Positions 15,258 through 32,005 of a stretch of DNA of 64,000 nucleotides are shown in pieces. Below the pieces are notes generated by a model. The model had not been told where the DNA came from. It saw only the letters and a list, made by a program, of their open reading frames with translations, and ran no database searches. How positions within the stretch are numbered: the stretch's first letter is position 1; the number at the start of each line of letters is the position of its first letter. This DNA is from an uncultured Candidatus Binatia bacterium (GTDB lineage: Bacteria > Desulfobacterota > Binatia > HRBIN30), in assembly GCA_964534275.1 (NCBI GenBank), contig CAZHQG010000002.1:140243-204242 (forward strand), given 5' to 3'. Position numbers and translations under genes: made by a program.

Positions 15258-15485
15258 ATGAGGCCCGTTGGCGACGAGGTATTCGGTATGCAGTTGGAAG
15301 TCGACGAAGCGGACGTGCAGTTACTGCAGTCCCTATTGCAAAGTCATGCGGTAACGCTTTCCCACGAGATCCACAAAGCGGCGACCCGGGAGTTCCGGAA
15401 GAAGCTCGAGGAAGAGGAGGCTCGCACGAAAGCGTTGCTGGATCGGCTTCGGGCAATTGCTGGCCCGGGTGGAACCTCGCGCTGA
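15258..15485 (+). CDS. Possible small (75 aa) coiled-coil protein
   Basis: ATG at 15258 (MRPVGDEVFGMQLEVDEADVQLLQSLLQ...KKLEEEEARTKALLDRLR). No family recognised. It lies in a 600-bp region between divergent genes. Confidence 0.3.
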   Translation: MRPVGDEVFGMQLEVDEADVQLLQSLLQSHAVTLSHEIHKAATREFRKKLEEEEARTKALLDRLRAIAGPGGTSR

Positions 15486-15749
15486 AAACTTTTTCGATCT
15501 GGGCGACTCCGCTTTCGGGACGCGCTGCTGGTCGGCCCGTCACTGCGGAGTCGCTCTGCGGTTTCCAAGGTCGGCGCGGGTGATGCATGGGCTCAGCACA
15601 ACTCGCGGTGCGAGGCAGGCGGGCACAGCGTGGGGTTCTCGTTGGGTGGCGCATGCGGGCAGCGCTAAGCGGGTCGTTGGGCCCGGGGGTCGGAAAAAGA
15701 TGGTTCCCGGCGTTGAGTATGCCGCCCGTTCGCGGTAAACAACGCCGCT

Positions 15750-16178
15750 GTGACAAACCCAGTTCCTAGCGAGATCCGTAATTTAGCTCGGTACCGCGAA
15801 GCGCTGCGCAAGCTGTTCCGTGCTACTGAACTCGCAGCGCGAGAGGTGGGCCTGACCCCCCAACAGCACTTGTTGCTCGTGGGTGCTGCAGGGCTTGGCG
15901 GCGCCGAGGGCGTGAGTATCAAGCGCCTCGCGGAATTTCTGCAACTTCGGCACCACACGGTGGTGGAGCTGGTGGACCGAGCTGAAGAGCAAGGATACGT
16001 GGTCCGCAGGGAAAATCCAGAAAACCGCCGCGAGGTGCTGGTAGCCGTTTCGCCGGCGGGCCTACGCAAGCTCAAGCAGCTTTCCACGCAGCACCGCCGC
16101 GAGTTGGAATTCATGCGGCGGCGGATGGACATTCTGGATATCGAGCGGGTTGGCACGCGGGGGCCGCGGCGCACCTGA
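15750..16178 (+). CDS. MarR-family transcriptional regulator
   Basis: 142 aa. The winged-HTH pattern (LTPQQHLLLVGAAGLGGAEGVSIKRLAEFLQLRHHTVVELVDRAEEQGYV) is typical of MarR. Confidence 0.85.
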   Translation: MTNPVPSEIRNLARYREALRKLFRATELAAREVGLTPQQHLLLVGAAGLGGAEGVSIKRLAEFLQLRHHTVVELVDRAEEQGYVVRRENPENRREVLVAVSPAGLRKLKQLSTQHRRELEFMRRRMDILDIERVGTRGPRRT

Positions 16179-16223
16179 AGGATCCTCGGCGCGGCGCGCG
16201 GCACCGATGCGCAAGCGGCGCGG

Positions 16224-18290
16224 TCAGGACGCTGTGCCGGGACGATAGATTTGCTGATACCGCAAATAGTGCGTCCACACTCGCTTCACGTAATCGCGCG
16301 TCTCGCGGTAGGTGATTTCTTCCACGAATTCGTCCGGCGCCAGGCCGTGCGCGCGCGCAAGCCAGCGACGGGCGGCTTCCTCTCCCCCGTTGTAGGCCGC
16401 CAGAGCGACAAAAGGTTGGTCGCCGAAGAGATCGAGTAGCTCGCGCAAGTGGCGTACGCCGAGCAAAATGTTCGTGCGCGGGTCGAACAAATCCACGCGC
16501 TCGGGATCGAGTCCGACCGCCGGTGCGACCCGCCGTGCGGTTTGGGGCATCAACTGCATGAGCCCGCAGGCTCCTGCCGGAGAGCATACTTCGGGATCGA
16601 ATAAGCTTTCCTGGCGCATAACTGCCAGAACGAATAGCGGGTCGATCCGCTGCGCGTTGGCGGCTTCGAGTATGTGTTCCTGGAACGCCAGCGGGTATTC
16701 TACCCGCTCCCGATCCGAGGGTGACCAGTCGCGCCACGACCAAACGGCACGCAGTGCGTCGGCGTATGCGTCGGTACGCATCCAGGCAGCCAAGAGAAAG
16801 GCGCGCCATGTCGGGTCGCCCACTGGTGCCCCGGCAGCGATGGCTGCCAGCTCTTTGCGCGCCAGCGACTGCACGCCAGCGGCCCGAAGGTGTTGCCAGC
16901 GCGTTCCATGGAACGGATCCATCGACGGCAAAGGGGGAATCTCCGGCAGTGTGGGTGCGGGCATGCCGAGGCCAGCGAGCCGTACGGTAGCGGCACCGAG
17001 GCCGCGCAGGCGCCGCTCGGCCATATGCGCATAGTAACTCGAGACCCCACTGGCCAGCTTGCGGTAAATCTGGTCGGCTTGGCGGGGCTGACCTCGGGCC
17101 TCGAGACACCGAGCACGCCAATACAGGCCGCGCTCGTCTTCATTGCCCAGGCGCTCGAACCAGCGCTGTGCTTCGCCTGCGTTTCCGCTTTTCCATGCGA
17201 ACCAGCCGCGCCACCAAAAGAACTCCCGCTGGAGGTCCGGTCCAACAAGCAACCGGTCGGTATCGGACAGGAGTGCCTGGGCGCGGGTCAGGTCACCGCC
17301 GCTGTAGGCAATGCGGGCGCGTGCCAACAAGGCACGCGGCGCCACGTCCGCGAGCGGGTAGCGCTGGAGAAGCTCCGCAAATACCCGATCGGCTGCCACG
17401 TCGCGGTTGCGGTTCCACAGCACGGTACCCATCCGGTACAGGGCACTGGCTGCAGACCGCGTATGGGGATATCGAGTTCCGACCATCCACCAGCCTCGAA
17501 GAGCGTCTTCCCACTGCGCCAACCCGTACGCGACTTCGGCAAGCACGACCAGCGCGCGAGCGCGCAGCTCGGGATCCATGCTTGTGGCCAAAGGTTCGGC
17601 CAGGTTGCGAGCGAGAGTCCAGTCGCGGTCGCGGATGGCCCACTCCGCTTCCTCTACCTGTTCTCCGGGGTTTGGCGCGAACTGCGGATGTGCCGCGCGC
17701 AGCTTGGTCAGGTGGCTTCGTGCACGCTCGCGCACCTCGGCGTTTTTCGCTTGGCCCCAAACCTCTCGGTACACCCGCGCAGCTTCCGCGTAGTCTCCGG
17801 CCCGCTCGCGGACGCGGGCAAGGACCAGCCGGGCGCGCTGCTGCCACTCGGGCGGCGGGGCCTGAGCAAGAACGCGCGTCGCCCAAAGTTGCGCACGGTC
17901 CGTAGATCCGGACTCCTCCAGCCACTCCGCCAAGTGCGCCGCCGCCTCGGCAAAGTAGATGCTTTGGGGGTACTCGCCCACCACCCGCTCCATGGCCGCG
18001 ATCGCATCCTGGCGTCGCTGGCGCTTGGCGGCGGCCAAGCCCGCGTGAAACCAACTATGATCCGCGAGCTCTGGGTAGGCGCGGGCCACGCGGACGAATA
18101 GCGCGTAGGCGCGATCGACGTCCTGTGCCCGCCACGCTTGCCAGGCTTGCCGGAAGCGCAGTTGCTTCTGTGTGTCGCCTTGCCAGCGCAGCCACCACGC
18201 TCCCGGATCGATGGATGCGAGCCACGAGCTCGGCCCACAGCCCGTCGCACCCAGCGCCACCCACACCAACACCCAGACCAGTTGCCGCAT
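16224..18290 (-). CDS. Soluble lytic murein transglycosylase (Slt70-like: superhelical domain plus C-terminal SLT domain), lipoprotein
   Basis: ATG at 18290 gives signal/lipobox MRQLVWVLVWVALGATGC. A long alpha-superhelical region is followed by the SLT catalytic motif AVMRQESLFDPEVCSPAGACGLMQLMPQTA and AAYNGG. Confidence 0.85.
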   Translation of the reverse strand: MRQLVWVLVWVALGATGCGPSSWLASIDPGAWWLRWQGDTQKQLRFRQAWQAWRAQDVDRAYALFVRVARAYPELADHSWFHAGLAAAKRQRRQDAIAAMERVVGEYPQSIYFAEAAAHLAEWLEESGSTDRAQLWATRVLAQAPPPEWQQRARLVLARVRERAGDYAEAARVYREVWGQAKNAEVRERARSHLTKLRAAHPQFAPNPGEQVEEAEWAIRDRDWTLARNLAEPLATSMDPELRARALVVLAEVAYGLAQWEDALRGWWMVGTRYPHTRSAASALYRMGTVLWNRNRDVAADRVFAELLQRYPLADVAPRALLARARIAYSGGDLTRAQALLSDTDRLLVGPDLQREFFWWRGWFAWKSGNAGEAQRWFERLGNEDERGLYWRARCLEARGQPRQADQIYRKLASGVSSYYAHMAERRLRGLGAATVRLAGLGMPAPTLPEIPPLPSMDPFHGTRWQHLRAAGVQSLARKELAAIAAGAPVGDPTWRAFLLAAWMRTDAYADALRAVWSWRDWSPSDRERVEYPLAFQEHILEAANAQRIDPLFVLAVMRQESLFDPEVCSPAGACGLMQLMPQTARRVAPAVGLDPERVDLFDPRTNILLGVRHLRELLDLFGDQPFVALAAYNGGEEAARRWLARAHGLAPDEFVEEITYRETRDYVKRVWTHYLRYQQIYRPGTAS

Positions 18291-18356
18291 GCAGAGCCGG
18301 GTAGCAAAAGCGTTCGCTTGCAGCGACACAGCGAGTTTGCGAACACTCGAACCGCC

Positions 18357-18956
18357 ATGTCGCGCCCGGTGATTCTGGCCTCGGCTTCTCCGCGTCGGAA
18401 AGAGTTGCTGGCCACCTTGCAGGTGCCCTTCCGCGTGGTTCCGGCCAATGTGCCAGAGGTCCCTGACCCGGAAGAGGCCGTGCAGGAGTACGTGCTGCGC
18501 TTGGCGGCTGCCAAGGCCGCAGTGGTGGCGGAACGCTTCCGCGATGCACTCGTAGTGGCCGCGGACACCGAGGTGGAACTTGACGGCGCGGTGCTCGGCA
18601 AACCGAGTTCTCCGGACCACGCTGTAGCGATGTTGCGTCAGCTTTCAGGCCGCACCCACCGCGTGTGTACCGGTGTATGCTTGCGTGAGGATCAGGCCGT
18701 GCTGGAGCTGTTCTCGGTGGAGACGTTGGTGACGTTCAAGCCCTTGAGCGACGAGGCTATCGCTGCGTACGTCGCGAGCGGAGAGCCCATGGACAAAGCC
18801 GGCGCGTATGGAGCACAAGGCGAAGGGCGCCGACTCATCGAACGGATCGAAGGGTCGTGGACAAACGTGGTCGGGTTACCCTTGGAGGAAGTGGCAGCCT
18901 GCTTGCGCCGCCATGGGGTGCTTGGGCCCCGAGTAGCCGAGTCGCTACGTGCATGA
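18357..18956 (+). CDS. maf: Maf nucleoside triphosphate pyrophosphatase
   Basis: The N-terminus MSRPVILASASPRRKELL and the Maf fold motifs are present. The stop overlaps the next start (ATGA). Confidence 0.9.
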   Translation: MSRPVILASASPRRKELLATLQVPFRVVPANVPEVPDPEEAVQEYVLRLAAAKAAVVAERFRDALVVAADTEVELDGAVLGKPSSPDHAVAMLRQLSGRTHRVCTGVCLREDQAVLELFSVETLVTFKPLSDEAIAAYVASGEPMDKAGAYGAQGEGRRLIERIEGSWTNVVGLPLEEVAACLRRHGVLGPRVAESLRA

Positions 18957-19663
18957 ACACCGAAGTTGCAGCACGCGTGGCGCAAGTTCGCGAGCGGGTC
19001 GCTACCGCAGCGCTGCGTTGCGGGCGCTCTCCTTCGGAGGTGTGCATCGTGGCAGTGGCGAAGACCCAGCCTGTCGAAGCTGTGCAGGCGGCAGTCGACG
19101 CTGGCATCACGAACATCGGCGAAAATTACGTTCAGGAAGCCCAAGCCAAGGCCGCCAAAGTCCGCGGGCCCGTCCGCTGGCACATGGTTGGCCACCTGCA
19201 GCGCAACAAGGTACGTGCTGCACTGCAACTGTTCGCCATGATTCACAGCGTGGATCGCGTGGCCTTGTTGGAAGAGATCGAAGCGCGTGCCGAGCAGCTC
19301 GGGCGCGAGTTTGTGGATGTGTTGTTCGAGGTGAACCTCGGCGGCGAGGCAACCAAGTCGGGAGTCGCTCCACACGCGTTGGGCGAGTTGTTCGCGGCCC
19401 TCGAGCGCTGCCCTCGCGTGCGGGTTCGCGGCCTCATGTGTATTCCCCCGCCTACCGAGTCGGCAGAACGAAGCCGACCATTTTTCCGCCGCTTGCGCGA
19501 GCTTCGCGATCAGTGGCAGGCCGCGGTTCGTGGGCAAGCGGAGCTCACGGAGCTTTCCATGGGGATGAGCGACGATTTTGAAGTAGCGATCGAGGAGGGC
19601 GCGACCATGGTTCGCATTGGCCGCGCGCTCTTTGGCGAGCGGCCTGCAAAGCACCAGCCCTAG
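18953..19663 (+). CDS. yggS: YggS/PLPHP-family pyridoxal-phosphate homeostasis protein
   Basis: The alanine-racemase-fold PLP-binding signature is present ([26 protein letters not shown]). Confidence 0.9.
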
Positions 19664-19719
19664 CGGGTGTACGTTCCCGGCGCTGGGCTGGAAATTCAGA
19701 AGAAGGAGGTCGAGGAGCG

Positions 19720-20583
19720 ATGGCGACAAAACGAACAACGGCCCGTGGGGCGCGCCAACCGCGGGTAAAGGCACTGCCTCCCATCGGCTTGATCGGTGCC
19801 GGGAACATGGCCAGTGCACTCATGCGGGGATTGTTGCAGGCAGGGCTGAGTTCTCCTGCGACGCTAATCGCCAGCGACGTGGACAAGGCGAAACTCGCTG
19901 CGCTCAAGCGGCAGTGGAAGATCCAGACGGCGACCCGCAACACCGCTGTCGTCGAAGCGGCCAAGGTGCTGGTGCTGGCAGTGAAACCGCAGGACTTGGA
20001 TGTCGTGCTCCAAGAGATCCGCGGTTCGATCACCCCGCAGCATTTGGTGATCAGCATTGCTGCGGGCGTACCGACCAGCAAGATCGAATTTGCACTCGGT
20101 GGCGACGTGCGGGTGCTGCGCGCCATGCCCAACACGCCGGCGCTGGTGGGCAAGGGAATGACGGTACTTGTCCGCGGGCGCTACGCCACGGCTGCGGATG
20201 TGAAGCTCGGACTCCAGATTTTCGGAGCGGTGGGCGATGCGGTCGATGTGGAAGACGAACGCATGCTCGATGCGGTGACCGGGCTTAGTGGGAGCGGGCC
20301 CGCGTATGTGTACTTGTTCGCCGAAGGGCTGATTGCGGGCGGCGTGGCCGCCGGGCTCACGGCGGCGTTGGCTGCACGCCTTACGTTCCAAACAATCGCT
20401 GGAGCTGCCGCGATGCTCCTAGAGACCGGGCAGCGCCCGGAGGACTTGCGCGCGCAAGTGAGTTCTCCGGGAGGCACGACTCTGGCGGGTCTCAGCGAGC
20501 TGCACCGGCGAGGATTCAAGGACGCGCTGGTGGCCGCTGTGGTCGCGGCCACGCGACGCTCGCAGGAACTCGGGCGCAAGTAG
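19720..20583 (+). CDS. proC: Pyrroline-5-carboxylate reductase
   Basis: The NADP Rossmann motif IGLIGAGNMASAL and ProC C-terminal dimerisation domain motifs (SSPGGTT) are present. Confidence 0.9.
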   Translation: MATKRTTARGARQPRVKALPPIGLIGAGNMASALMRGLLQAGLSSPATLIASDVDKAKLAALKRQWKIQTATRNTAVVEAAKVLVLAVKPQDLDVVLQEIRGSITPQHLVISIAAGVPTSKIEFALGGDVRVLRAMPNTPALVGKGMTVLVRGRYATAADVKLGLQIFGAVGDAVDVEDERMLDAVTGLSGSGPAYVYLFAEGLIAGGVAAGLTAALAARLTFQTIAGAAAMLLETGQRPEDLRAQVSSPGGTTLAGLSELHRRGFKDALVAAVVAATRRSQELGRK

Positions 20584-20592
20584 TTCGTCTGG

Positions 20593-22224
20593 ATGTTTCG
20601 CAGCAATCGACCATACGGGAGTGGCTGGCGTGCACAACGGTCGCTCGTGCTGGCTCGGCGAGGTCTCGTGTGCACCAGCCAAGCGCTTGCCACCAGCGCC
20701 GGCGTGGAAGTGTTGCGCCGTGGAGGCACGGCCATGGATGCCGCGCTGGCGGCGAACCTGGTACTGTGTGTGGTCGAGCCGTACAACACAGGGCTCGGGG
20801 GCGACTGCTTGTTGCTGTACTGGAATGCTGCTGAACACCGCCTGTACGCCTTGAACGGAAGCGGCCGAGCTCCCGCCGCACTCGATGTCGACGTGCTGGA
20901 GGCGCGAGGCTTTACATCGATGCCGCTCACTGGTGTGTGGAGCATCACGGTGCCAGGGGCGGTCCAGGCGTGGGCGGACGCTCACGGGCGCTTCGGACGG
21001 CTCCCATGGGACACCTTGTTCGAGGCGGCCATCGACTACGCAGAACACGGCTTTCCGGTAACGGAAGTGATCGGTTACGAGTGGAGATTGATCGTCCACG
21101 CTGGGATTTTACAGGATCCGGTTGCGCGTGCGTGGTTCACCTGCAACGGAGAGCCGCCGGAACTGGGCGAGATCGTTCGCTTGCCCGAGCTTGCCCGTTC
21201 CTTCAAGGAACTTGCTCGCTCTGGGCCGGACTGGTTCTATCGTGGACCGTTCGCAGAAGCCGCCGCGCAGGCGGTCGCCCAGCAGGGCGGGGTTCTCAGT
21301 TTGCAGGACTTTCGGGAACATTGCTCTACCTGGGTGGACCCGCTCACCACCACGTACCGCGGTTACGAACTTGTCGAATTTCCGCCCAGTACCCAGGGCA
21401 TCGCGGCGCTGCTGGCACTGAACATCCTCGAAAATTTCGACCTGCCTGCATACGGGCCACAAGCGCCCGAGGTGCACCACTATCGGATCGAGGCAGTGAA
21501 GTTGGCGCTGGCCGATCGCAACCGGTATGTGGCAGACCCCGAGTTTGCCAGCGTGCCGGTCGAGGGATTGCTGTCGAAGGACTACGCCCAAGGCCGCGCC
21601 GCCGTGCTCCACCCGCAACGCGCGTTAGTGCAACCGGCGCCGGGAAGAATGCTGCCAGGCTCCGATACGGTGTACTTGGCAGCCGCGGATTCCGAGGGGA
21701 ACCTGGTGTCGATGATCAGCAGCTTGTACTTTCCCTTTGGCTCAGGGGTCGCGGTGCCGGGCACCGGGGTGGTGCTGCAAAACCGTGGCGCCGGCTTCGT
21801 GCTCGAGCGTGGACACCCCAACTGCGTGGCGCCACGCAAGCGCCCGTTGCATACCATCATTCCCGCCATGCTCTTGCATCAGGGCCAACCGGTGGTGGCT
21901 TTCGGCGTGATGGGTGGGGATCATCAGGCTCAAGCGCACGTGCAAGTGGTGTCGCACATGGTGGACTTCGGGGCCAACATTCAAGAAGCTTTGGATGCTC
22001 CACGGTTCCACGTCATCGAGCGCAATCGTGTCGCGTTCGAAGAAGAATACGATCCGGTGTTGGTGGCGGCCTTGTCGCAGCGCGGGCACGCAATTGCCGA
22101 CCCCGCGGAAGTGCGCATCCGTGGCGGATTTGGCGGGGGCCAAGGAATCATGGTGCACCCGCGGTCCGGGGTTTTGTGGGGCGGTTCCGACCGGCGCAAA
22201 GACGGGACTGCCGGCGGGTATTAG
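20593..22224 (+). CDS. ggt: Gamma-glutamyltranspeptidase
   Basis: 543 aa. GGT family motifs are present, including the autocatalytic Thr region (DSEGNLVSMISSLYFPFGSG) and GGDCLLLYW. Confidence 0.9.
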   Translation: MFRSNRPYGSGWRAQRSLVLARRGLVCTSQALATSAGVEVLRRGGTAMDAALAANLVLCVVEPYNTGLGGDCLLLYWNAAEHRLYALNGSGRAPAALDVDVLEARGFTSMPLTGVWSITVPGAVQAWADAHGRFGRLPWDTLFEAAIDYAEHGFPVTEVIGYEWRLIVHAGILQDPVARAWFTCNGEPPELGEIVRLPELARSFKELARSGPDWFYRGPFAEAAAQAVAQQGGVLSLQDFREHCSTWVDPLTTTYRGYELVEFPPSTQGIAALLALNILENFDLPAYGPQAPEVHHYRIEAVKLALADRNRYVADPEFASVPVEGLLSKDYAQGRAAVLHPQRALVQPAPGRMLPGSDTVYLAAADSEGNLVSMISSLYFPFGSGVAVPGTGVVLQNRGAGFVLERGHPNCVAPRKRPLHTIIPAMLLHQGQPVVAFGVMGGDHQAQAHVQVVSHMVDFGANIQEALDAPRFHVIERNRVAFEEEYDPVLVAALSQRGHAIADPAEVRIRGGFGGGQGIMVHPRSGVLWGGSDRRKDGTAGGY

Positions 22225-25549: not shown

Positions 25550-27208
25550 GTGGGATTTCGTCCACCACCAGCAATCGAGCCAGCAACCGCTGCGTTTTGG
25601 CATGCTTGCCGCGACGGCCGGCTCGAATTCCGTTTTTGCCCGCGTTGTGAGTGGTTCATTCACCCGCCGCGGCCGATCTGCCCGCAATGTCACAGGACAG
25701 AGCTCGAGTCCCGGCAAGTGTCGGGGCGGGGGACGGTGCACACCTACACCGTGAACCACAAGGCGTGGTTTCCTGGGCAGGAAGTGCCGTACATCATCGC
25801 GATCGTCGAACTGGAGGAGCAACCCGGCTTGCGGCTCCTCAGCAACATTGTCGAGTGTGCCCCCGAGGAAGTGCAGATCGGCATGCCGGTACGTGTGCAG
25901 TTCGAAGTGTTGAACGACGAGGTGGCTTTACCGGTGTTCGTTCCTGACTTGGAGCGCGCGAGCCCGCGGGAGGGCACTCAAGAACCGCGTCGTGTCGAGG
26001 TCCGGCCGGAAAGTCCGTCAGTCGTTTCCTCAGGCGAGCCGTTGGAGCGGCGCGCCGTGCTCTCCGGTGTTGGCCAATCGGCCATCGGTCGTCGTCTCTT
26101 TCGCGACGAGCTCGACCTCACCTGCGAAGCAGCGCTTCGAGCGATTGCCGACGCGGGGCTGCGGGTTTCCGACATCGATGGGATCGCTGCCTACCCCGGA
26201 CCAGTCACGAACGTGCCCGGTTTTTCCGGTCCCAGCATTTACGACGTACAGGATGCGCTCGGACTCTCGGTGCGCTGGCACTTGTCCGGAATGGAGGGCC
26301 CGGGCCAAATCATGCCCATCATTGCGGCAGCGTTGGCCGTGGCCAGTGGGCTGGCGCGACACGTGTTGGTGTATCGTACCGTTACCGAGGCCACCGCGGC
26401 AGCCGACACCGGGCGCCGTGGGATTGGTGCTGGCGCGCGAGAAATCACCGGCTTTGCTGCCTTTCTCGTACCGTTTGGAGCGATGTCGGCAGCCAATTGG
26501 CTTGCGCTGTACGCGCGCCGCCACATGCACGTGTATGGAACCCAGCGCAAGCACTTAGGCGCGATCGCGCTGACTGCCCGCGAACATGCTCGCTTGAACC
26601 CGGCTGCCGTCTACCGCGAGCCGCTCACGTGGGACGACTACTGGCAAGCGCGCATGGTGAGCGACCCGTTTTGCTTGTTCGATTGCGACGCTCCGGTCGA
26701 TGGCTCCACGGCCGTGATTGTGTCCTCTGCGGAGTGTGTGCGCGACCTGGCCAAGCCAGCAGTGCGCATCGAAGCTGTGGGGACCGCGCTCGGCAAACGC
26801 CCGTTGTGGGATCAGTGGCCGGACTTGACCACGATGGCAGCGCACGATTCCGCCCGGCATCTGTGGAGTCGTACAACCCTGAGACCGAACGACGTGGATA
26901 CCGCCCAGCTTTACGACGGGTTTTCGTTCCTCACGTTGTCTTGGCTCGAAGCCCTCGGATTTTGCGGACCGGGCGAAAGCGGACCCTTCGTCGAAGAAGG
27001 TCACATCCGGCTGGGCGGGAGGCTTCCACTGAACACGTGGGGTGGACAACTCTCGGGCGGCCGCTTGCACGGTTTTGGATTCGTGGCTGAAGCAATTCGA
27101 CAAATCCGCGGCGAGTGCGGTGAGCGCCAAGTGCCGGACTGCGAAGTTGCCGTGGTGGCAGTCGGAGGAGGTCCCGTTGCCGGCTGCATGCTCCTGACGC
27201 GTGCGTAA
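25550..27208 (+). CDS. Fusion protein: N-terminal DUF35 (zinc ribbon plus OB fold) joined to a C-terminal SCP-x/Ltp-type thiolase-like domain
   Basis: GTG start with GGAGG RBS. Residues ~1-130 carry the zinc ribbon CPRCEW...CPQC and the OB fold (GRGTVHTYTV...PYIIAIVELEE). A linker is followed by the thiolase-like domain (AVLSGVGQS...AVGGGPVAG). Confidence 0.8.
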   Translation: MGFRPPPAIEPATAAFWHACRDGRLEFRFCPRCEWFIHPPRPICPQCHRTELESRQVSGRGTVHTYTVNHKAWFPGQEVPYIIAIVELEEQPGLRLLSNIVECAPEEVQIGMPVRVQFEVLNDEVALPVFVPDLERASPREGTQEPRRVEVRPESPSVVSSGEPLERRAVLSGVGQSAIGRRLFRDELDLTCEAALRAIADAGLRVSDIDGIAAYPGPVTNVPGFSGPSIYDVQDALGLSVRWHLSGMEGPGQIMPIIAAALAVASGLARHVLVYRTVTEATAAADTGRRGIGAGAREITGFAAFLVPFGAMSAANWLALYARRHMHVYGTQRKHLGAIALTAREHARLNPAAVYREPLTWDDYWQARMVSDPFCLFDCDAPVDGSTAVIVSSAECVRDLAKPAVRIEAVGTALGKRPLWDQWPDLTTMAAHDSARHLWSRTTLRPNDVDTAQLYDGFSFLTLSWLEALGFCGPGESGPFVEEGHIRLGGRLPLNTWGGQLSGGRLHGFGFVAEAIRQIRGECGERQVPDCEVAVVAVGGGPVAGCMLLTRA

Positions 27209-27340
27209 GAAACAGTTGGGCAACACCGTGCCCGTGCGCTGCCTGGTCCTTTGCGCGTGCTGCGTGGGGCCAGCTAAAGTCTGTGGCCCGAAGTTCGGAC
27301 GCGACCATACGCGCAGCCAGCCGAGGTTAGGAAGTGCCCG

Positions 27341-28423
27341 TTAGGAGGGCCTCTTTGCGGAGCGCTCTGCTGGGGGCACAATGCGCAAGCGCGGCCGGTA
27401 GGACGCGTCGCGTAAGAGATAAAAGATCCCGCCAGAAAGCGTGGGCGCTTCCGCGACCCAGAATCCAAGGGCAGCCGAAAGAATCGAGCTTTCGAGGCCG
27501 ATGCGGTGTGCAAGCATCAACGCTTGGACGATCTCCCGCACACCCTCGCCGGCGATGGTAAACGGGCTAATGACCGTGGCAAAAATCTGGATCGTCGATC
27601 CAAAAATCACTTCCCAAAACTCGGCGTGGTGAGCCCCAACTGCAATGGCGGTAAGGAAATACGTGACAGCGGTGAAAAAATGCACCCCGAAGCTCAGTGC
27701 GGCGGCCGCGACGAGTCGGGCCTTTTGATCGCGGTAGGCCGCCGCGGCTCCGTGCAGGCGTTCCACGAAGTTGCCGATTCGTACGCGCCGGAGTTGTGGC
27801 GCCCAGTCCAAGAACCACAGCAACCAGCGCGGATGAAGTAAAATGGCGAAAAATCCTACGCAAACGAACGCGGCGAGGGGAATGGTCAGCCAGCCCACCA
27901 TCGCGGCACGTTCTCCGAGAATCGTGTGGCCGAGGGGGAACGTGACGAGAAAGCACAGGAAAATACCGACGATTCCGAGGCCCTTTTCGATCGCGGTTGC
28001 TGCTGCGGCCTCGACCGTGCGCCCGCTAAAGCGTGCGGCATCGTAGAGCTTGTAGCCGTCGAGCCCGAGCGTCGAGGGCAGGAAGGTGCCGAGGAAACGG
28101 CCAATCAAGAACGTGGTGAACACGTGCCACAGGGGAAAGTACAAGCCTTGCCCCCGGAGTAACACGTTCCAGCGCAGCATCGAACAGGCCATGCCACACA
28201 TCCGCACGACAAACGCCAAAAGGGCGAAGCGCCAGAATACCCCGGTGTCGATGCGAGGCAGGTAGTCGAGGATTGCTCGGAGGGCAGAAACACGTGCGCC
28301 GTCGCTCGTTTCTACTGGGTGCTGCAGCAGCAGGTAAAATGCCGCTACAGTAACGCCGCACTTGGCAGCAAAGGAAAGACTCGTGCGCGCCCAGCTGCGT
28401 TCCGCGCTTGCAGGGGTGGACAA
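27341..28423 (-). CDS. Polytopic membrane protein of the flippase-like / lysylphosphatidylglycerol-synthase-TM-region (UPF0104) family
   Basis: 360 aa with about 8 predicted TM helices. The pattern matches the LPG_synthase_TM/flippase-like domain. It is the last gene of a minus-strand cluster. Confidence 0.65.
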   Translation of the reverse strand: MSTPASAERSWARTSLSFAAKCGVTVAAFYLLLQHPVETSDGARVSALRAILDYLPRIDTGVFWRFALLAFVVRMCGMACSMLRWNVLLRGQGLYFPLWHVFTTFLIGRFLGTFLPSTLGLDGYKLYDAARFSGRTVEAAAATAIEKGLGIVGIFLCFLVTFPLGHTILGERAAMVGWLTIPLAAFVCVGFFAILLHPRWLLWFLDWAPQLRRVRIGNFVERLHGAAAAYRDQKARLVAAAALSFGVHFFTAVTYFLTAIAVGAHHAEFWEVIFGSTIQIFATVISPFTIAGEGVREIVQALMLAHRIGLESSILSAALGFWVAEAPTLSGGIFYLLRDASYRPRLRIVPPAERSAKRPS

Positions 28424-28426
28424 CGG

Positions 28427-29089
28427 TTAAGGTCTCCTCTGTGAACGGCTTTCGATTTCGCGCAGACGAATCTCCAGCTTGCGCAAGCGATCTGCGAAGG
28501 AGTCTCCGGTCGAACTAAGTTGACGTTCCGAAGCGTCTTCCGGCTTTTTTTCCAATGCCTCGAGTCTTCTTTCCAAGCGGTCCAGTCGTGTCTCGATCGC
28601 TTGCAAGCGAACCTCGTCTGCGGGCTGTTCGGGCGGGAGCCCGGGGGACGCTTGAATCGTCGCTTGCGTGGACTTTGTCTCCCCCGCGGTGCCCGGGCCG
28701 GGAGGTCCAACGATGGCGACATTTTGCGGCTCGCGCACGACCATCTCCCAGCGCCCCCGGAATTCCCGAATCGTTCCGCTGGCACGGATGGTCTGACCAG
28801 GAAGCCGATGCTCGGCGTCGGGAAAGCGGCTCAGCAACCCTTCCACCAACAGCAAATCGAGCGTGGCAGGCGGCTGCCCGAGCTGCAGACGCACCACGTT
28901 TCCCTCTCGGCGCCCAGCCTCCACTCGAGCTTCGACCGTGACTTCCTCGCCGACGTACAATGGGGCCACGCTCACATCGATGAGCGGAGGGGCAGTCGCC
29001 ATCGCCGCGCCTGCAAGCATCGTGGAGACAAGCGCTGCCGCGGCGACGGCGACGCGCTGGCTCCTGCAGGAGCTACAGTTCGAACCCAC
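28427..29089 (-). CDS. Secreted protein with OB-fold-like N-domain and C-terminal coiled coil
   Basis: A probable GTG start at 29089 yields the signal peptide ...RVAVAAAALVSTMLAGAAMA|TAPP. An alternative ATG lies at 29020. The OB-like segment is (VTVEARVEAG...VVRLQLG...IRASGTIREFRGRWEMVV). It is followed by a Pro-rich linker and heptad repeats (RLQAIETRLDRLERRLEALEKK). Confidence 0.45.
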   Translation of the reverse strand: MGSNCSSCRSQRVAVAAAALVSTMLAGAAMATAPPLIDVSVAPLYVGEEVTVEARVEAGRREGNVVRLQLGQPPATLDLLLVEGLLSRFPDAEHRLPGQTIRASGTIREFRGRWEMVVREPQNVAIVGPPGPGTAGETKSTQATIQASPGLPPEQPADEVRLQAIETRLDRLERRLEALEKKPEDASERQLSSTGDSFADRLRKLEIRLREIESRSQRRP

Positions 29090-29240
29090 GTTCGGCCTCG
29101 TCTTCGTCCGGGGTGGGAGCCAGCTCTTCAAGTTTGCGGAACACAACTTCGATGAGCTTGTCGATGCGGCGGTATTCGCCGGATCGTGCCGCGGCACGGG
29201 CGACACTGACCGCCAAACGGAGCTTTTCGTCGCGAGTCAT
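29073..29240 (-). CDS. Small hypothetical protein (55 aa)
   Basis: ATG at 29240 with GAGGTGG RBS (MTRDEKLRLAVSVARAAARSGEYRRIDKLIEVVFRKLEEL...). Its 3' end overlaps the downstream gene. Confidence 0.4.
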   Translation of the reverse strand: MTRDEKLRLAVSVARAAARSGEYRRIDKLIEVVFRKLEELAPTPDEDEAERGFEL

Positions 29241-29469
29241 GGTCCACCTCTGTGTTTGCCAATCCGGCAAGCGTATAGCGCCACGAAGCAACATTTTCTT
29301 TTCATCGCCGGCGCTTCGTGGATGCGAACAGAAACCACCAGTGTGGGTGGAGGAAGTTTGCCACGTTTGCAGAAGAGTGGTACGCTGCAGCGCACGTTCG
29401 CTCAGGGTTCGCTCGCGCCTCCCTTCGTGGCGTTGGAGTGTCCCACAGGCGAAGAAAGGAGTGCCGCAA

Positions 29470-29646
29470 ATGGCAGGCGGGAAGACGTTCAAAAGGGACC
29501 AGAAACGACGCAAAGAGATGGCCCGAAAGCTCAAGCAAGAGGAAAAGATGCGGAAACGCCTGCAGCGGCGGGAAGAGAAGCGCAGCGGTGTGGCGAAGGA
29601 GGAAGAGGAAATCACGATCCCGCCGCAAGGGCCGCTCACGAGCTGA
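29470..29646 (+). CDS. Small (58 aa) highly basic Lys/Arg/Glu-rich protein, divergent from the minus-strand cluster
   Basis: ATG at 29470 is preceded by GAAAGGAG RBS with 8-nt spacing. It encodes MAGGKTFKRDQKRRKEMARKLKQEEKMRKRLQRREEKRSGVAKEEEEITIPPQGPLTS. Confidence 0.4.
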   Translation: MAGGKTFKRDQKRRKEMARKLKQEEKMRKRLQRREEKRSGVAKEEEEITIPPQGPLTS

Positions 29647-29728
29647 CACTTCTCGGCGACAGAGCGCGAAGCGTGCAGAGCTAGGCAAAACCTCATCGCG
29701 TCCGGCCGTTGTATCGAGCTTCCGCGGG

Positions 29729-30892
29729 TCACCGAATCGGATAGTGATAGCCTAAGTCCACCGCGCCAATTTTTACGCAGTCGTTTTCCGTGCCCGGGAC
29801 GCAACCGGGGGGGCAGCAGCCCGCGCCAATGCAATCCGGCTTGTTGTCCACTTGCGTGGTACGCTGCGCGAGGAGGGCGACAAGTTCAGGGTCTGTATCG
29901 GGGTCCCCTGCGTCCATGATCGCGCTTCCGCCACGGCATTCGTCATCCGTTCCGGGAATGCGGAAACCGTTCTGGTTCCCTGGATCCAGCCAAAATGGGT
30001 CTACGTTCAGGTCGTGCGGACCAGCGCTGGCGTTGAAAAAGCCGTCACGATTGAGGTTGTAGTCGCCGTCGAACCCAACAGTGGAGCTATCCACGGTAAT
30101 TCCCCGCGGCGTGTTGCCGACGAAGATATTGTTCCGTGCCAGAATCGCTTCCGAAGGTCGGCCAGATTCGTCGCTAGCCATGACCAGGCCGTTGCCCCGA
30201 TTTGCGTAAAATGTGTTGTTCACGACCGCGACGTTGCTGGAGGCGAGCAGCGACACACCGGGCCCGCCATTGCGAAGGATGAGATTGTTCCAGATGCGCG
30301 TACCAGCCGCACGGAGCAGCCGTATGCCGTCGCGGGAATTTTCCCGTACGATCGAGTTGCGAATCGTGACGGCATTCCCCTCGCGGATTTCGATACCGGC
30401 GCGCGTTGCCCCACGCACGGTAAACCCGTCGACGGTGAGCCCGTCCACTCCTTCCAGCGAGATCCCTGTGGCTGCGCCGGCGGCGTTGATCACCACCTCG
30501 CCAGCGGGAAAACCGGTGAGCTGACCAGTCACGTCGGCCACCACGGTAATCGGGCCGTTCAAGTCGCTCGCTGTCACGCGGAACGGTGCGTACACTCCTG
30601 CAGGTACAGCGACCACGGCTCCAGGAGGAGCAACGCGAATGGATTCTACGATGCCGCGGCTTCCTGGCTGAACTTGGACAGGAGTTTGCGTGGGAGTCGG
30701 CGAGGGTGGAGCAACCGTGCGGGTCGGGGTGAACGTCGGCTCCCCAGGGCGCAACGTACGCGTCGGCGTGCGGGTAGGCGTGCCGGGCGTAACCGCGGGT
30801 CCGCCGTTGCCTCCCCCTCCGCACCCCGACGTAGTGACGAGTACAAACCCAAAGACGCACAGTGCAGTAAGCGACAAGCTCCGTAGCGGCAT
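29729..30892 (-). CDS. Lipoprotein with right-handed parallel beta-helix repeats (NosD/pectate-lyase-fold) and Cys-rich C-terminus
   Basis: ATG at 30892. The lipobox is LVTTSGCGGGG. A Pro/Thr-rich linker is followed by repeated N-rich beta-helix turns (IRNSIVRENSRDGIRL.., NNLILRNGGPGVSL.., NNTFYANRGNGLV..). The C-terminus has 8 Cys. Confidence 0.7.
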   Translation of the reverse strand: MPLRSLSLTALCVFGFVLVTTSGCGGGGNGGPAVTPGTPTRTPTRTLRPGEPTFTPTRTVAPPSPTPTQTPVQVQPGSRGIVESIRVAPPGAVVAVPAGVYAPFRVTASDLNGPITVVADVTGQLTGFPAGEVVINAAGAATGISLEGVDGLTVDGFTVRGATRAGIEIREGNAVTIRNSIVRENSRDGIRLLRAAGTRIWNNLILRNGGPGVSLLASSNVAVVNNTFYANRGNGLVMASDESGRPSEAILARNNIFVGNTPRGITVDSSTVGFDGDYNLNRDGFFNASAGPHDLNVDPFWLDPGNQNGFRIPGTDDECRGGSAIMDAGDPDTDPELVALLAQRTTQVDNKPDCIGAGCCPPGCVPGTENDCVKIGAVDLGYHYPIR

Positions 30893-31013
30893 GCGCCAAT
30901 CCTTTCCCGAGGCAAGATGCACGGCCCCGTTTAGCCACACGAACCGCAAGATGTCCACCGCCGTTTGCAAGTGGATTCCTCGGCCGTGCCCGAAGGGTTC
31001 CGGAAGGGACGAG

Positions 31014-31502
31014 TTACGCTGGGGCAGTTCGGGGCCGGATCATGTATGTCGTGGTTGCACGCGCTGCAAGTTGGCCCGCTGCCCAAATATCGACTTCGGC
31101 ATATGCGCTACGCTTGCTTGCCCGCAGTACGAAGGCCTCGGCGGTGACCAAACCAGGAGGAATGGGCTCGAGGTAGTTGATCTTCATTTCGATCGTCAGA
31201 AGCAACGTGCCCTCTTCGTACAGAGTTGCCAAAGCAGCTGCTACGGCGGTGTCCGCCAGCCCGAAACTGGCCCCACCGTGCATCACGCCTGCCGGCTGCA
31301 TCAGTTCGAGTCGGTTTTGGACTTCCAACCGGGCGTAGCCTTGGCGAAGTTCGACCACGCGGATTCCTAAGTGGCCGGGAAAGAAGCGGTTGTCTTCGTT
31401 GAACCGGGTCGAAATGAGGCGTGCCCGCTCGGGATCGAGGGGCGGATAGTCGTGGCCGTGATTGCCAGACCTTAGTCGCTCTCCGATACGAATATGCGCC
31501 AT
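31014..31502 (-). CDS. PaaI/4HBT-family hotdog thioesterase
   Basis: ATG at 31502 (MAHIRIGERL...). The hotdog motif GVMHGGASFGLADTAV is present. Confidence 0.8.
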   Translation of the reverse strand: MAHIRIGERLRSGNHGHDYPPLDPERARLISTRFNEDNRFFPGHLGIRVVELRQGYARLEVQNRLELMQPAGVMHGGASFGLADTAVAAALATLYEEGTLLLTIEMKINYLEPIPPGLVTAEAFVLRASKRSAYAEVDIWAAGQLAARATTTYMIRPRTAPA

Positions 31503-31786
31503 GCGTACGTGCCTATCTTGCGACAAGGCTTGGGTCCAGCCAGGGGCTGCTGCAGGCCCGGAGGACCAGACGCGAGCGAGCCATGACGGGCGCGAGGCTC
31601 CTACCAGGAGGGCGCCCGAAGCCGACCGTGAGGACGGGCACACGAGTCGGACCAGGGGACCTCGTTCGAGGCAAGATTGCAAAGGAAGAACTTTGTCCGT
31701 TCCGTGCAATTCGAAGGATTTGCTTGACAAGGCGGCCGAAGTCGTTTACCGAACCACTCCTGTCAGAATTGATTTGGAAATCCGAT

Positions 31787-31873
31787 ATGCACGTCTTTCG
31801 CAAAGCACGGGAATTGGGTCTGCTTCTGGGGCTGTTGCTTCCTTGCCCGCCCGGTGCGTCTGCGGGGACGTGA
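31787..31873 (+). CDS. Leucine-rich leader peptide (28 aa, 7 Leu in a 9-residue run) of the leu operon attenuator
   Basis: It encodes MHVFRKARELGLLLGLLLPCPPGASAGT*. The Leu codons are ttg ctg ctt ctg ctg ttg ctt. It sits 130 bp upstream of leuA and is followed by a perfect terminator hairpin. Confidence 0.6.
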   Translation: MHVFRKARELGLLLGLLLPCPPGASAGT

Positions 31874-31896
31874 GTCAGGATTACGGAACCGCAAGG

Positions 31897-31936
31897 CGCC
31901 ACGGGCGGGAATCGCTGCCCGTGGCGTTTTTATTTT
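31897..31936 (+). terminator. Intrinsic terminator / attenuator hairpin of the leu leader
   Basis: The perfect 10-bp stem is CGCCACGGGC (31897-31906) / GCCCGTGGCG (31917-31926) with a 10-nt loop. It is followed by TTTTTATTTT. The leader segment CCCGCCCG (31844-31851) can alternatively pair with CGGGCGGG (31902-31909). Confidence 0.65.
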
Positions 31937-32005
31937 CGCCGCGAGCAGCTCCCTCCGGTGGCGTCGATGGAAAGGAAACCACGGAATCGAGAAGGGAGTG
32001 AAACC

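Follow-up and report, generated by a model that had tools for sequence, protein, structure and literature searches.

Do the co-directional genes at positions 27,341 to 31,502 of a 64,000-nucleotide stretch of DNA from an uncultured Candidatus Binatia bacterium (contig CAZHQG010000002.1, positions 140,243 to 204,242; the whole stretch is referred to below as the window) constitute a single operon with a single task? A preliminary description, made from the sequence alone, had proposed that five minus-strand genes of this block form an operon for the modification of a membrane lipid or glycan. These genes encode a thioesterase, a beta-helix lipoprotein, a protein of 55 amino acids (aa) named s55, an exported OB-fold/coiled-coil protein (OB/CC) and a flippase-like membrane protein of the PplT/YbhN type. 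The analysis presented here leads to another working model, which on balance is probably correct: the block is specific to Binatia and consists of separate units, one of which combines a PplT translocator with the co-expressed OB/CC and s55 proteins. Within this model, the functional link between PplT and an exported partner is proposed with low-to-moderate confidence. The G+C content of the window is approximately 62%, and by its protein matches it falls within Candidatus Binatia, near bacterium HR30 and the KatS3mg077 metagenome-assembled genome (MAG).

Gene organization and transcription units

All six open reading frames of the preliminary description, including a divergent one of 58 codons, were recovered at or near the positions given there. 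The features of the block are as follows:

31014-31502, minus strand: hotdog-fold thioesterase, 162 aa (PF03061, 6.9e-18; TIGR00369, 79.6 bits)
29729-30892, minus strand: beta-helix lipoprotein, 387 aa (PF13229, 1.4e-20)
29470-29646, plus strand: basic, Lys/Arg/Glu-rich protein of 58 aa ("K-rich"), a stand-alone gene with an AAGGAG ribosome-binding site
29241-29469, no strand: divergent intergenic region of 229 nucleotides (nt), from a four-genome alignment
29073-29240, minus strand: s55, cytoplasmic protein of 55 aa with two predicted helices
28427-29089, minus strand: OB/CC, exported protein of 220 aa with a predicted OB fold and two coiled-coil helices
27341-28423, minus strand: stand-alone PplT/YbhN-type flippase-like inner-membrane protein, 360 aa (PF03706, 3.5e-17)

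The thioesterase and beta-helix genes are separated by 121 nt in the window and by 121-171 nt across all genomes compared. A gap of 488 nt, described earlier as 490 bp, follows between the beta-helix gene and s55, and the divergent 58-aa gene with its strong ribosome-binding site (AAGGAG) does lie inside it, on the opposite strand. The spacing of the last three genes is that of a single operon, as had been described: the 3' end of s55 overlaps the GTG start (29089) of the OB/CC gene by 17 nt, and the PplT gene begins with a TTG codon, preceded by a GAGGAG site, 3 nt past the OB/CC stop. Comparable spacing of this trio is kept in four related loci (L003, L004, L006 and L024).

The four-genome alignment of the 229-nt spacer revealed a conserved -10-like element, GCTATA(A/C)GC, at 29271-29279, approximately 31 nt before the s55 start, and a conserved TTGC-N17-TAnnnT-like element that, together with the AAGGAG site, precedes the 58-aa gene. 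Each side of the spacer carries conserved -10-like elements and ribosome-binding sites, and the former may belong to promoters. An Rfam search of 27200-32000 at E <= 1 gave no match, and no known riboswitch or leader was found in the cluster; at the gathering thresholds, the whole window yielded one tRNA only.

Thus, it can be inferred with high confidence that at least three transcription units are present, namely the thioesterase gene (with the beta-helix gene), the 58-aa gene, and s55-OB/CC-PplT. The single five-gene operon of the preliminary description is not supported, given the 121-nt gap between the first two genes and the intervention of an oppositely oriented gene that has its own promoter-like elements. 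In addition, an insertion parts the thioesterase and beta-helix genes from the rest in bacterium HR30, in which an HsdM N-terminal fragment and an MNT/HepT toxin-antitoxin pair lie between the beta-helix and 58-aa genes (L006 5236-6488); none of these is found in the window.

Proteins of the trio

The s55 protein has homologues in 133 clusters of 54-95 aa, most of them of 55-64 aa, with an almost invariant core (MTxDEKLRLAVSVARAAARSGEYRRLDKLIEIVFRKLNEL). The AlphaFold2 model is a helical hairpin (residues 3-19 and 24-40; pLDDT 74), followed by a disordered, acidic tail with a terminal F-K/E-L. A ribbon-helix-helix DNA binder was considered for s55 and rejected, as the model gives two helices and no N-terminal strand. 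The overlap of the s55 3' end with the next gene, which had been noted earlier, is not a fixed feature of the family: depending on the lineage, the junction is an overlap of 17, 14 or 4 nt or a gap of 3-70 nt. A fusion of s55 and OB/CC by programmed frameshift, giving an anti-sigma-like single-pass protein, was rejected because the junction is variable and each gene also occurs without the other.

OB/CC begins with a Sec-type signal peptide with a predicted cleavage site at AMA|TAPP, followed by an OB domain at residues ~35-126 and a linker with a VQASPG motif. In the alignment, the N-termini of the homologues are variable and hydrophobic and end in an AxA-like site, which fits a cleaved Sec signal and favors the longer, GTG-initiated form; the earlier view that this protein carries a signal peptide and is exported was therefore borne out. 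The OB-like domain and the coiled coil were likewise recovered in the AlphaFold2 model, in which the OB core has a pLDDT above 90 and two heptad helices with Leu/Ile spacing occupy residues 158-180 and 197-217. The protein scored 15.4 bits against PF01336, for which the cutoff is 27; weak matches were found in 11 of 12 family members, and the profile relatives clearly pass. It matched neither the BOF (YgiW/YdeI) family model nor the seven-stranded MCE barrel of MCE/MlaD-type lipid-transfer proteins.

A word-based search gave 11 homologues of OB/CC, and a profile search of 1.84 billion representatives gave 810, of which 181 had E <= 1e-10. The long relatives fell into three groups. The first consists of lipoproteins in which two PLD-like domains precede 2-4 OB repeats, the second of Ser/Thr kinases that have a transmembrane (TM) helix and three external OB repeats, and the third of tandem-OB proteins. 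None of the PLD parts exceeded a curated cutoff; among solved structures, the Nuc endonuclease is closest to them, and there is also a resemblance to cardiolipin synthases. Because these relatives sit on lipoproteins and kinase ectodomains, the OB domain of OB/CC can be taken as an extracytoplasmic ligand-binding module, for which a polyanionic ligand is plausible. The exported PLD/Nuc-like lipoproteins with C-terminal OB repeats and the Ser/Thr kinases with an OB ectodomain (P0264, P0279, P0336, P0304 and P0326) were a side product of this search, and both architectures appear to be undescribed.

The third protein was previously described as an 8-TM UPF0104/LPG-synthase-TM flippase-like protein encoded 3 bp from the OB gene, and each part of this description was supported. 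It matched PF03706 with 63.3 bits (E = 3.5e-17; cutoff 33.4) over profile positions 6-287 of 302 and TIGR00374 with 47.5 bits (cutoff 43.2). Kyte-Doolittle analysis gave eight hydrophobic segments (16-32, 67-83, 105-121, 148-164, 179-195, 237-253, 272-288 and 308-324). Lipid translocation by this protein is predicted from its family membership. The profile search of solved structures gave no match at E <= 1. With regard to HpnL, the NCBIfam scan at E <= 0.1 returned TIGR00374 only, and no hpn genes were found nearby.

Conservation of the block

The s55 alignment identified loci in 13 GTDB species, all of which are Binatia or obviously mislabelled MAGs, and these loci were scanned with a hidden Markov model (HMM) for each gene. 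Three Binatia genomes, in which the OB proteins are only ~50% identical, share the same gene order: thioesterase, beta-helix protein, 58-aa protein (opposite strand), s55, OB, PplT, a 62-aa protein (d62) and a MarR regulator. The co-occurrence of these genes in related genomes, on which the preliminary description had made its proposal depend, was thus confirmed. Over the 13 loci, the frequencies were as follows:

58-aa gene adjoining s55: 12 of 13 loci
MarR gene downstream of s55: 12 of 13 loci
Beta-helix gene upstream of s55: 9 of 13 loci
OB gene near s55: 8 of 13 loci
PplT gene near s55: 4 of 13 loci
Thioesterase gene near s55: 2 of 13 loci

The genes do not, then, move as one unit, since the thioesterase gene is confined to the closest relatives and the flippase gene to 4 of the 13 species loci. 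The combinations observed were s55 alone, s55 with OB, s55 with PplT, and all three together; OB with PplT and without s55 was found in L033 and L034. Where PplT is absent, its place is often occupied by typA on the opposite strand.

A second survey was centred on the flippase. When metagenomes were scanned with an alignment of eight PplT orthologues, 80 loci were obtained, with identities of 60-79% within Binatia and 51-60% elsewhere. All 20 orthologues that are at least 61% identical belong to the Binatia block and lie directly behind s55 and/or OB wherever upstream sequence exists; the other 60, with 51-60% identity, lie outside it. One outside subgroup has variable neighbors, with a divergent TetR/AcrB pair and a convergent DsbA-like gene. 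In the other (L075-L110; e.g. L085 4760-5542), with 51-55% identity, a gene for an unannotated, conserved lipoprotein of ~260 aa lies upstream on the same strand in 22 loci, and feoAB and gpsA are found further upstream. This lipoprotein has a SHOCT-like C-terminal helix (LSPEQLRALADLEEARRxGEITEAEY). Homology between it and OB/CC was considered and rejected, as hhalign gave a probability of 0.5%.

The genes for d62 and MarR, assigned by HMM matches, lie elsewhere in the window:

15288-16178, plus strand: d62, 62-aa helical protein (15288-15473), and MarR regulator (15750-16178)

At 15.3-22.2 kb of the window, the genes for d62, MarR, SLT/TPR, Maf, ProC and GGT are arranged as they are downstream of PplT in L003, L004 and L006, and the run from d62 to GGT (15288-22224) is on the opposite strand relative to the arrangement in these relatives. 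The simplest explanation is an inversion of ~12 kb (about 15.2-27.3 kb) in the window, which would have cut d62 and MarR off from the trio. In the close relatives, d62 (L003 9853-10041) is a helical protein of 60-62 aa encoded between PplT and MarR; it contains HEIHKxATREFRKRLEEEEERTKALI and belongs to no Pfam family. Moreover, in one Binatia lineage the s55-OB pair directly follows a YfhO-family (GT-C) membrane protein (L014 4779-7626), and in another s55-OB-PplT-MarR precedes a series of GT1/GT4, GT2 and GT9 glycosyltransferases (L015 9532-14174). No hints of a glycan link were found beyond these two arrangements, neither of which is conserved.

The 58-aa basic protein

The preliminary description had left open that the small reading frames might be spurious. 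Both are conserved: in addition to the 133 clusters of s55, more than 335 clusters of relatives of 55-89 aa were found for the 58-aa protein. In comparisons with orthologues, the 58-aa gene showed 13-18 synonymous and 1-4 nonsynonymous codon changes over 34 codons, and s55 showed 15-24 and 2-9 over 40 codons, with most differences in both genes at the third position. Because synonymous changes far exceed nonsynonymous ones and third positions dominate, the 58-aa gene and s55 can be regarded as genuine, with strong purifying selection acting on both proteins. Scans of Pfam and NCBIfam and a profile search of the PDB revealed no relative of either.

Residues 1-26 of the 58-aa protein (MAGGKTFKRDQKRRKEMARKLKQEEK) were identical in 30 of 30 sampled homologues, and the tail is acidic and variable. 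These 26 residues are unchanged although synonymous sites are saturated. Such strong constraint suggests that the protein may bind a macromolecule that is itself highly conserved, for instance DNA, RNA or the ribosome. A basic N-terminus combined with an acidic tail is typical of nucleic-acid binders. The family is also found without the block, for example after a signal peptidase (Peptidase_S26) gene and in other contexts. This larger, independent distribution makes it unlikely that the 58-aa gene is functionally part of the cluster, as had been assumed at first.

Interpretation of the block and competing explanations

Three units may be distinguished. In unit 1, a hotdog acyl-CoA thioesterase and a CASH-type beta-helix lipoprotein would have a loose link to each other and probably act independently of the other genes. 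Unit 2 would be monocistronic and divergently transcribed, encoding the very highly conserved 58-aa basic protein. Unit 3 would be the translationally coupled trio s55-OB/CC-PplT with its own promoter. In this trio, PplT would act as a general, housekeeping-type inner-membrane lipid translocator that has the same domain as the flippase module of MprF and no dedicated lipid-synthesizing enzyme attached. OB/CC, exported through Sec, probably oligomeric and, in this lineage, co-expressed with PplT, would bind an extracytoplasmic ligand, probably a polyanion, on the outer side of the membrane, and s55 might serve as a small cytoplasmic partner or regulator. The parts of the trio would be modular, each being found without the others in some Binatia.

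The link between PplT and an exported partner is suggested by the tight spacing, kept despite saturated synonymous sites, and by the parallel pairing with a lipoprotein in a second lineage. That pairing would represent a second case of an exported partner with a C-terminal oligomerization helix. Any such link would be facultative, because the presence and absence of the genes are modular. Several points weigh against it. PplT is absent from most s55/OB loci and approximately 60 of its 80 orthologues lie outside the block, so the coupling may be a lineage-specific accident of gene order. In the SHOCT-lipoprotein loci (group B2), the gaps between the lipoprotein and flippase genes measure 40-500 nt, which means that these genes are not tightly coupled. 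The closest enzymes fused to OB relatives are at least as similar to the Nuc nuclease as to cardiolipin synthase, which points away from lipids. No lipid synthase, glycosyltransferase, acyltransferase, deacetylase, PLD or other lipid enzyme was found in the trio or beside the 80 PplT orthologues. Finally, the promoter-like elements and the signal peptide were assigned by eye.

Synteny without a shared function is a possible, rather doubtful alternative. Here, s55-OB/CC would be self-contained, for example a stress protein that is exported and binds polyanions or DNA, together with its small cytoplasmic partner, and PplT would be a housekeeping lipid translocator that merely lies downstream in some Binatia. 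The occurrence of s55 and OB without the flippase in seven loci (L014, L017, L018, L019, L020, L022 and L023) and of the flippase behind s55 without OB in L021 and L040-L042 agrees with this, as do the unrelated neighbors of the outside flippase orthologues (TetR/AcrB, DsbA-like, FeoAB and GpsA) and the fusion of OB relatives to Nuc-like PLD domains and kinases rather than to lipid enzymes. Points against it are that the OB-flippase gap stays at 3-7 nt across genomes with saturated synonymous sites, that every flippase orthologue of at least 61% identity lies directly behind s55 or OB, and that the sister clade has independently paired its flippase with an exported lipoprotein. A regulatory cassette is decidedly improbable. 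In it, s55, the 58-aa protein and d62 with MarR would form a regulatory or nucleoid-associated set that controls OB, PplT and the beta-helix protein as variable cargo. It would account for the observation that the block varies least in s55, the 58-aa gene and MarR (12 of 13 loci for the latter two) and is variable in OB, the flippase and the thioesterase, for the far better conservation of the small proteins than of the envelope proteins, and for the charge pattern typical of nucleic-acid binders. Nevertheless, the predicted structure of s55 is a simple helical hairpin that lacks a DNA-binding motif, the 58-aa gene is also found at sites remote from all other genes of the block, the inversion in the window moved d62 and MarR 12 kb away with the trio intact, and L033 and L034 keep OB and the flippase without s55.

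The five-gene operon of the preliminary description, in which the enzymatic steps would fall to the thioesterase and the beta-helix protein, export to the flippase and the role of periplasmic partner to OB, is the least probable of these explanations. The genes do share direction and order in the closest relatives (L003, L004, L006, L024 and L031), the beta-helix gene is near the block in 9 of 13 species, and other PplT proteins are encoded in lipid-modification operons (PMC12713373). Against this, the cluster is split by a 488-nt gap that contains an oppositely oriented, independently conserved gene, it is split further by the insertion in HR30, and the thioesterase gene occurs in only 2 of 13 species loci. 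Moreover, neither a hotdog thioesterase nor a secreted CASH lipoprotein is a transferase of lipid head groups, and no transferase lies beside any flippase orthologue. Since a modifying enzyme is lacking both in the trio and next to the 80 flippase orthologues, a lipid or glycan modification operon is not supported.

Beyond the working model of separate units with a PplT-containing trio, a more ambitious version is unlikely, if worth stating: the trio would be a new envelope machine composed of the PplT translocator and a dedicated, exported and oligomeric OB/CC receiver, and, separately, the 58-aa protein, with its 26 invariant residues, would be an undescribed ribosome- or nucleoid-bound factor. 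The pairing of the orthologous PplT with a non-homologous SHOCT-helix lipoprotein in the sister lineage would then suggest that stand-alone PplT proteins as a rule depend on a periplasmic partner for passing on or sensing their substrate.

Thioesterase and beta-helix lipoprotein

The thioesterase matched 4HBT (PF03061) at 6.9e-18 and exceeded the TIGR00369 cutoff (79.6 bits; cutoff 36.6), which confirmed the hotdog fold of the earlier "PaaI hotdog thioesterase". The PaaI label was overstated, because the score against the PaaI equivalog TIGR02286 was 42.3 bits, below its cutoff of 118.9. The protein can thus be placed in the TIGR00369 PaaI/YbdB/4HBT-II-like subfamily and not among the PaaI equivalogs; its best solved relatives are PA5202 and HI1161. 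It joins the block in the closest relatives only (L003, L004, L006, L024 and L031).

Next to this gene, a 28-codon reading frame, MHVFRKARELGLLLGLLLPCPPGASAGT, with 7 Leu in 9 residues, was found directly 5' of leuA (31958), in a region spanning 31787-31940 on the plus strand. It is followed by a 16-bp GC-rich hairpin with a T-run at 31893-31940, and a Leu-rich peptide with a near-identical hairpin also lies upstream of leuA in L004 and L006. The region had no Rfam match. This element looks like a leucine leader-peptide attenuator in Binatia.

The beta-helix protein matched Beta_helix (PF13229) at 1.4e-20 and is a right-handed, CASH-type beta-helix. Orthologues and a custom HMM placed the start of its gene at the ATG at 30892 (387 aa) and not at the TTG at 30970. 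With this start, the N-terminus reads MPLRSLSLTALCVFGFVLVTTSG|C; the lipobox, read by eye, is TTSG|C, with the Cys at position 24, and a Pro/Thr linker follows. This signal peptide ending in a lipobox with the invariant Cys is the pattern of a lipoprotein. The helix, the lipoprotein nature and the linker of the earlier "beta-helix lipoprotein" thus held, and the "8-Cys tail" had to be corrected: the tail contains 6 Cys and the whole protein 8. Matches were limited to the generic models for Beta_helix and parallel beta-helix repeats; the score against NosD (TIGR04247) was 29.7 bits, well below the cutoff of 300, and the similarity to AlgE mannuronan epimerases is weak. The gene lies upstream of the 58-aa gene in 9 of the 13 Binatia species loci.

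Significance of the findings

Stand-alone PplT/YbhN proteins have been proposed, on indirect evidence, as the missing general phospholipid flippases of prokaryotes. A conserved operon of PplT and OB/CC, together with the parallel pairing with the SHOCT lipoprotein, would provide concrete partners for PplT. Otherwise, the result is a correction, in that the cluster is no operon of a lipid or glycan pathway. In either case, three families without a Pfam model were defined (s55, the 58-aa basic protein and OB/CC), which are real and strongly constrained and will be useful for annotating the uncultured phylum Binatia. As far as seen, s55, the 58-aa protein and the OB/CC architecture are undescribed families restricted to Binatia and relatives.

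Comparison with known systems

The thioesterase shares the hotdog fold and TIGR00369 with the class II thioesterases of the PaaI/YbdB/4HBT type, among which PA5202, HI1161, Arthrobacter 4HBT and PaaI have been solved. It differs from them in that it falls under the equivalog cutoffs for PaaI, MenI, EntH and YdiI and in that its neighbors are the leuA leader and the beta-helix lipoprotein instead of paa, men or ent genes.

OB/CC was compared with the BOF periplasmic OB-fold proteins YgiW/VisP and YdeI/OmdA. Its likeness is to the PF01336-type OB repeats of PLD/Nuc-like lipoproteins and kinase ectodomains, with profile E-values of 1e-14 to 1e-36 and a common sequence pattern (YVGxxVTVEG...FP.PP..Y.GK.VRV.G...Y.G.PEIIV..P.QI). 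These relatives carry 2-6 tandem OB domains with a catalytic or signaling domain, whereas OB/CC has one OB domain with a coiled coil and no enzyme.

With MprF, the window PplT protein has the flippase transmembrane module in common. Unlike MprF, it lacks the C-terminal aminoacyl-phosphatidylglycerol synthase, ends approximately 35 residues past the last TM segment and has PF03706 as its sole Pfam match. It most resembles the PplT/YbhN proteins, with which it shares full-length PF03706, TIGR00374 above the cutoff, eight hydrophobic segments, a length of ~360 aa and the absence of a fused enzyme. Stand-alone PplT (YbhN) has been proposed as a general phospholipid translocator (10.1101/2022.03.11.483950), and GpgF is a predicted flippase in the lipid-modification operon gpgSDF (PMC12713373); the evidence is indirect in both cases. 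In Escherichia coli, ybhN occurs with clsB and ybhP, and gpgF and hexF occur with a glycosyltransferase and a deacetylase (10.1101/2022.03.11.483950; PMC12713373). Unlike these clsB-ybhN, gpgSDF and hexSDF operons, the window has no lipid enzyme beside PplT and offers s55 and the exported OB/CC as its partners. The window flippase is thus a new member of a known family, and its pairing with s55 and OB/CC is a new gene context for PplT.

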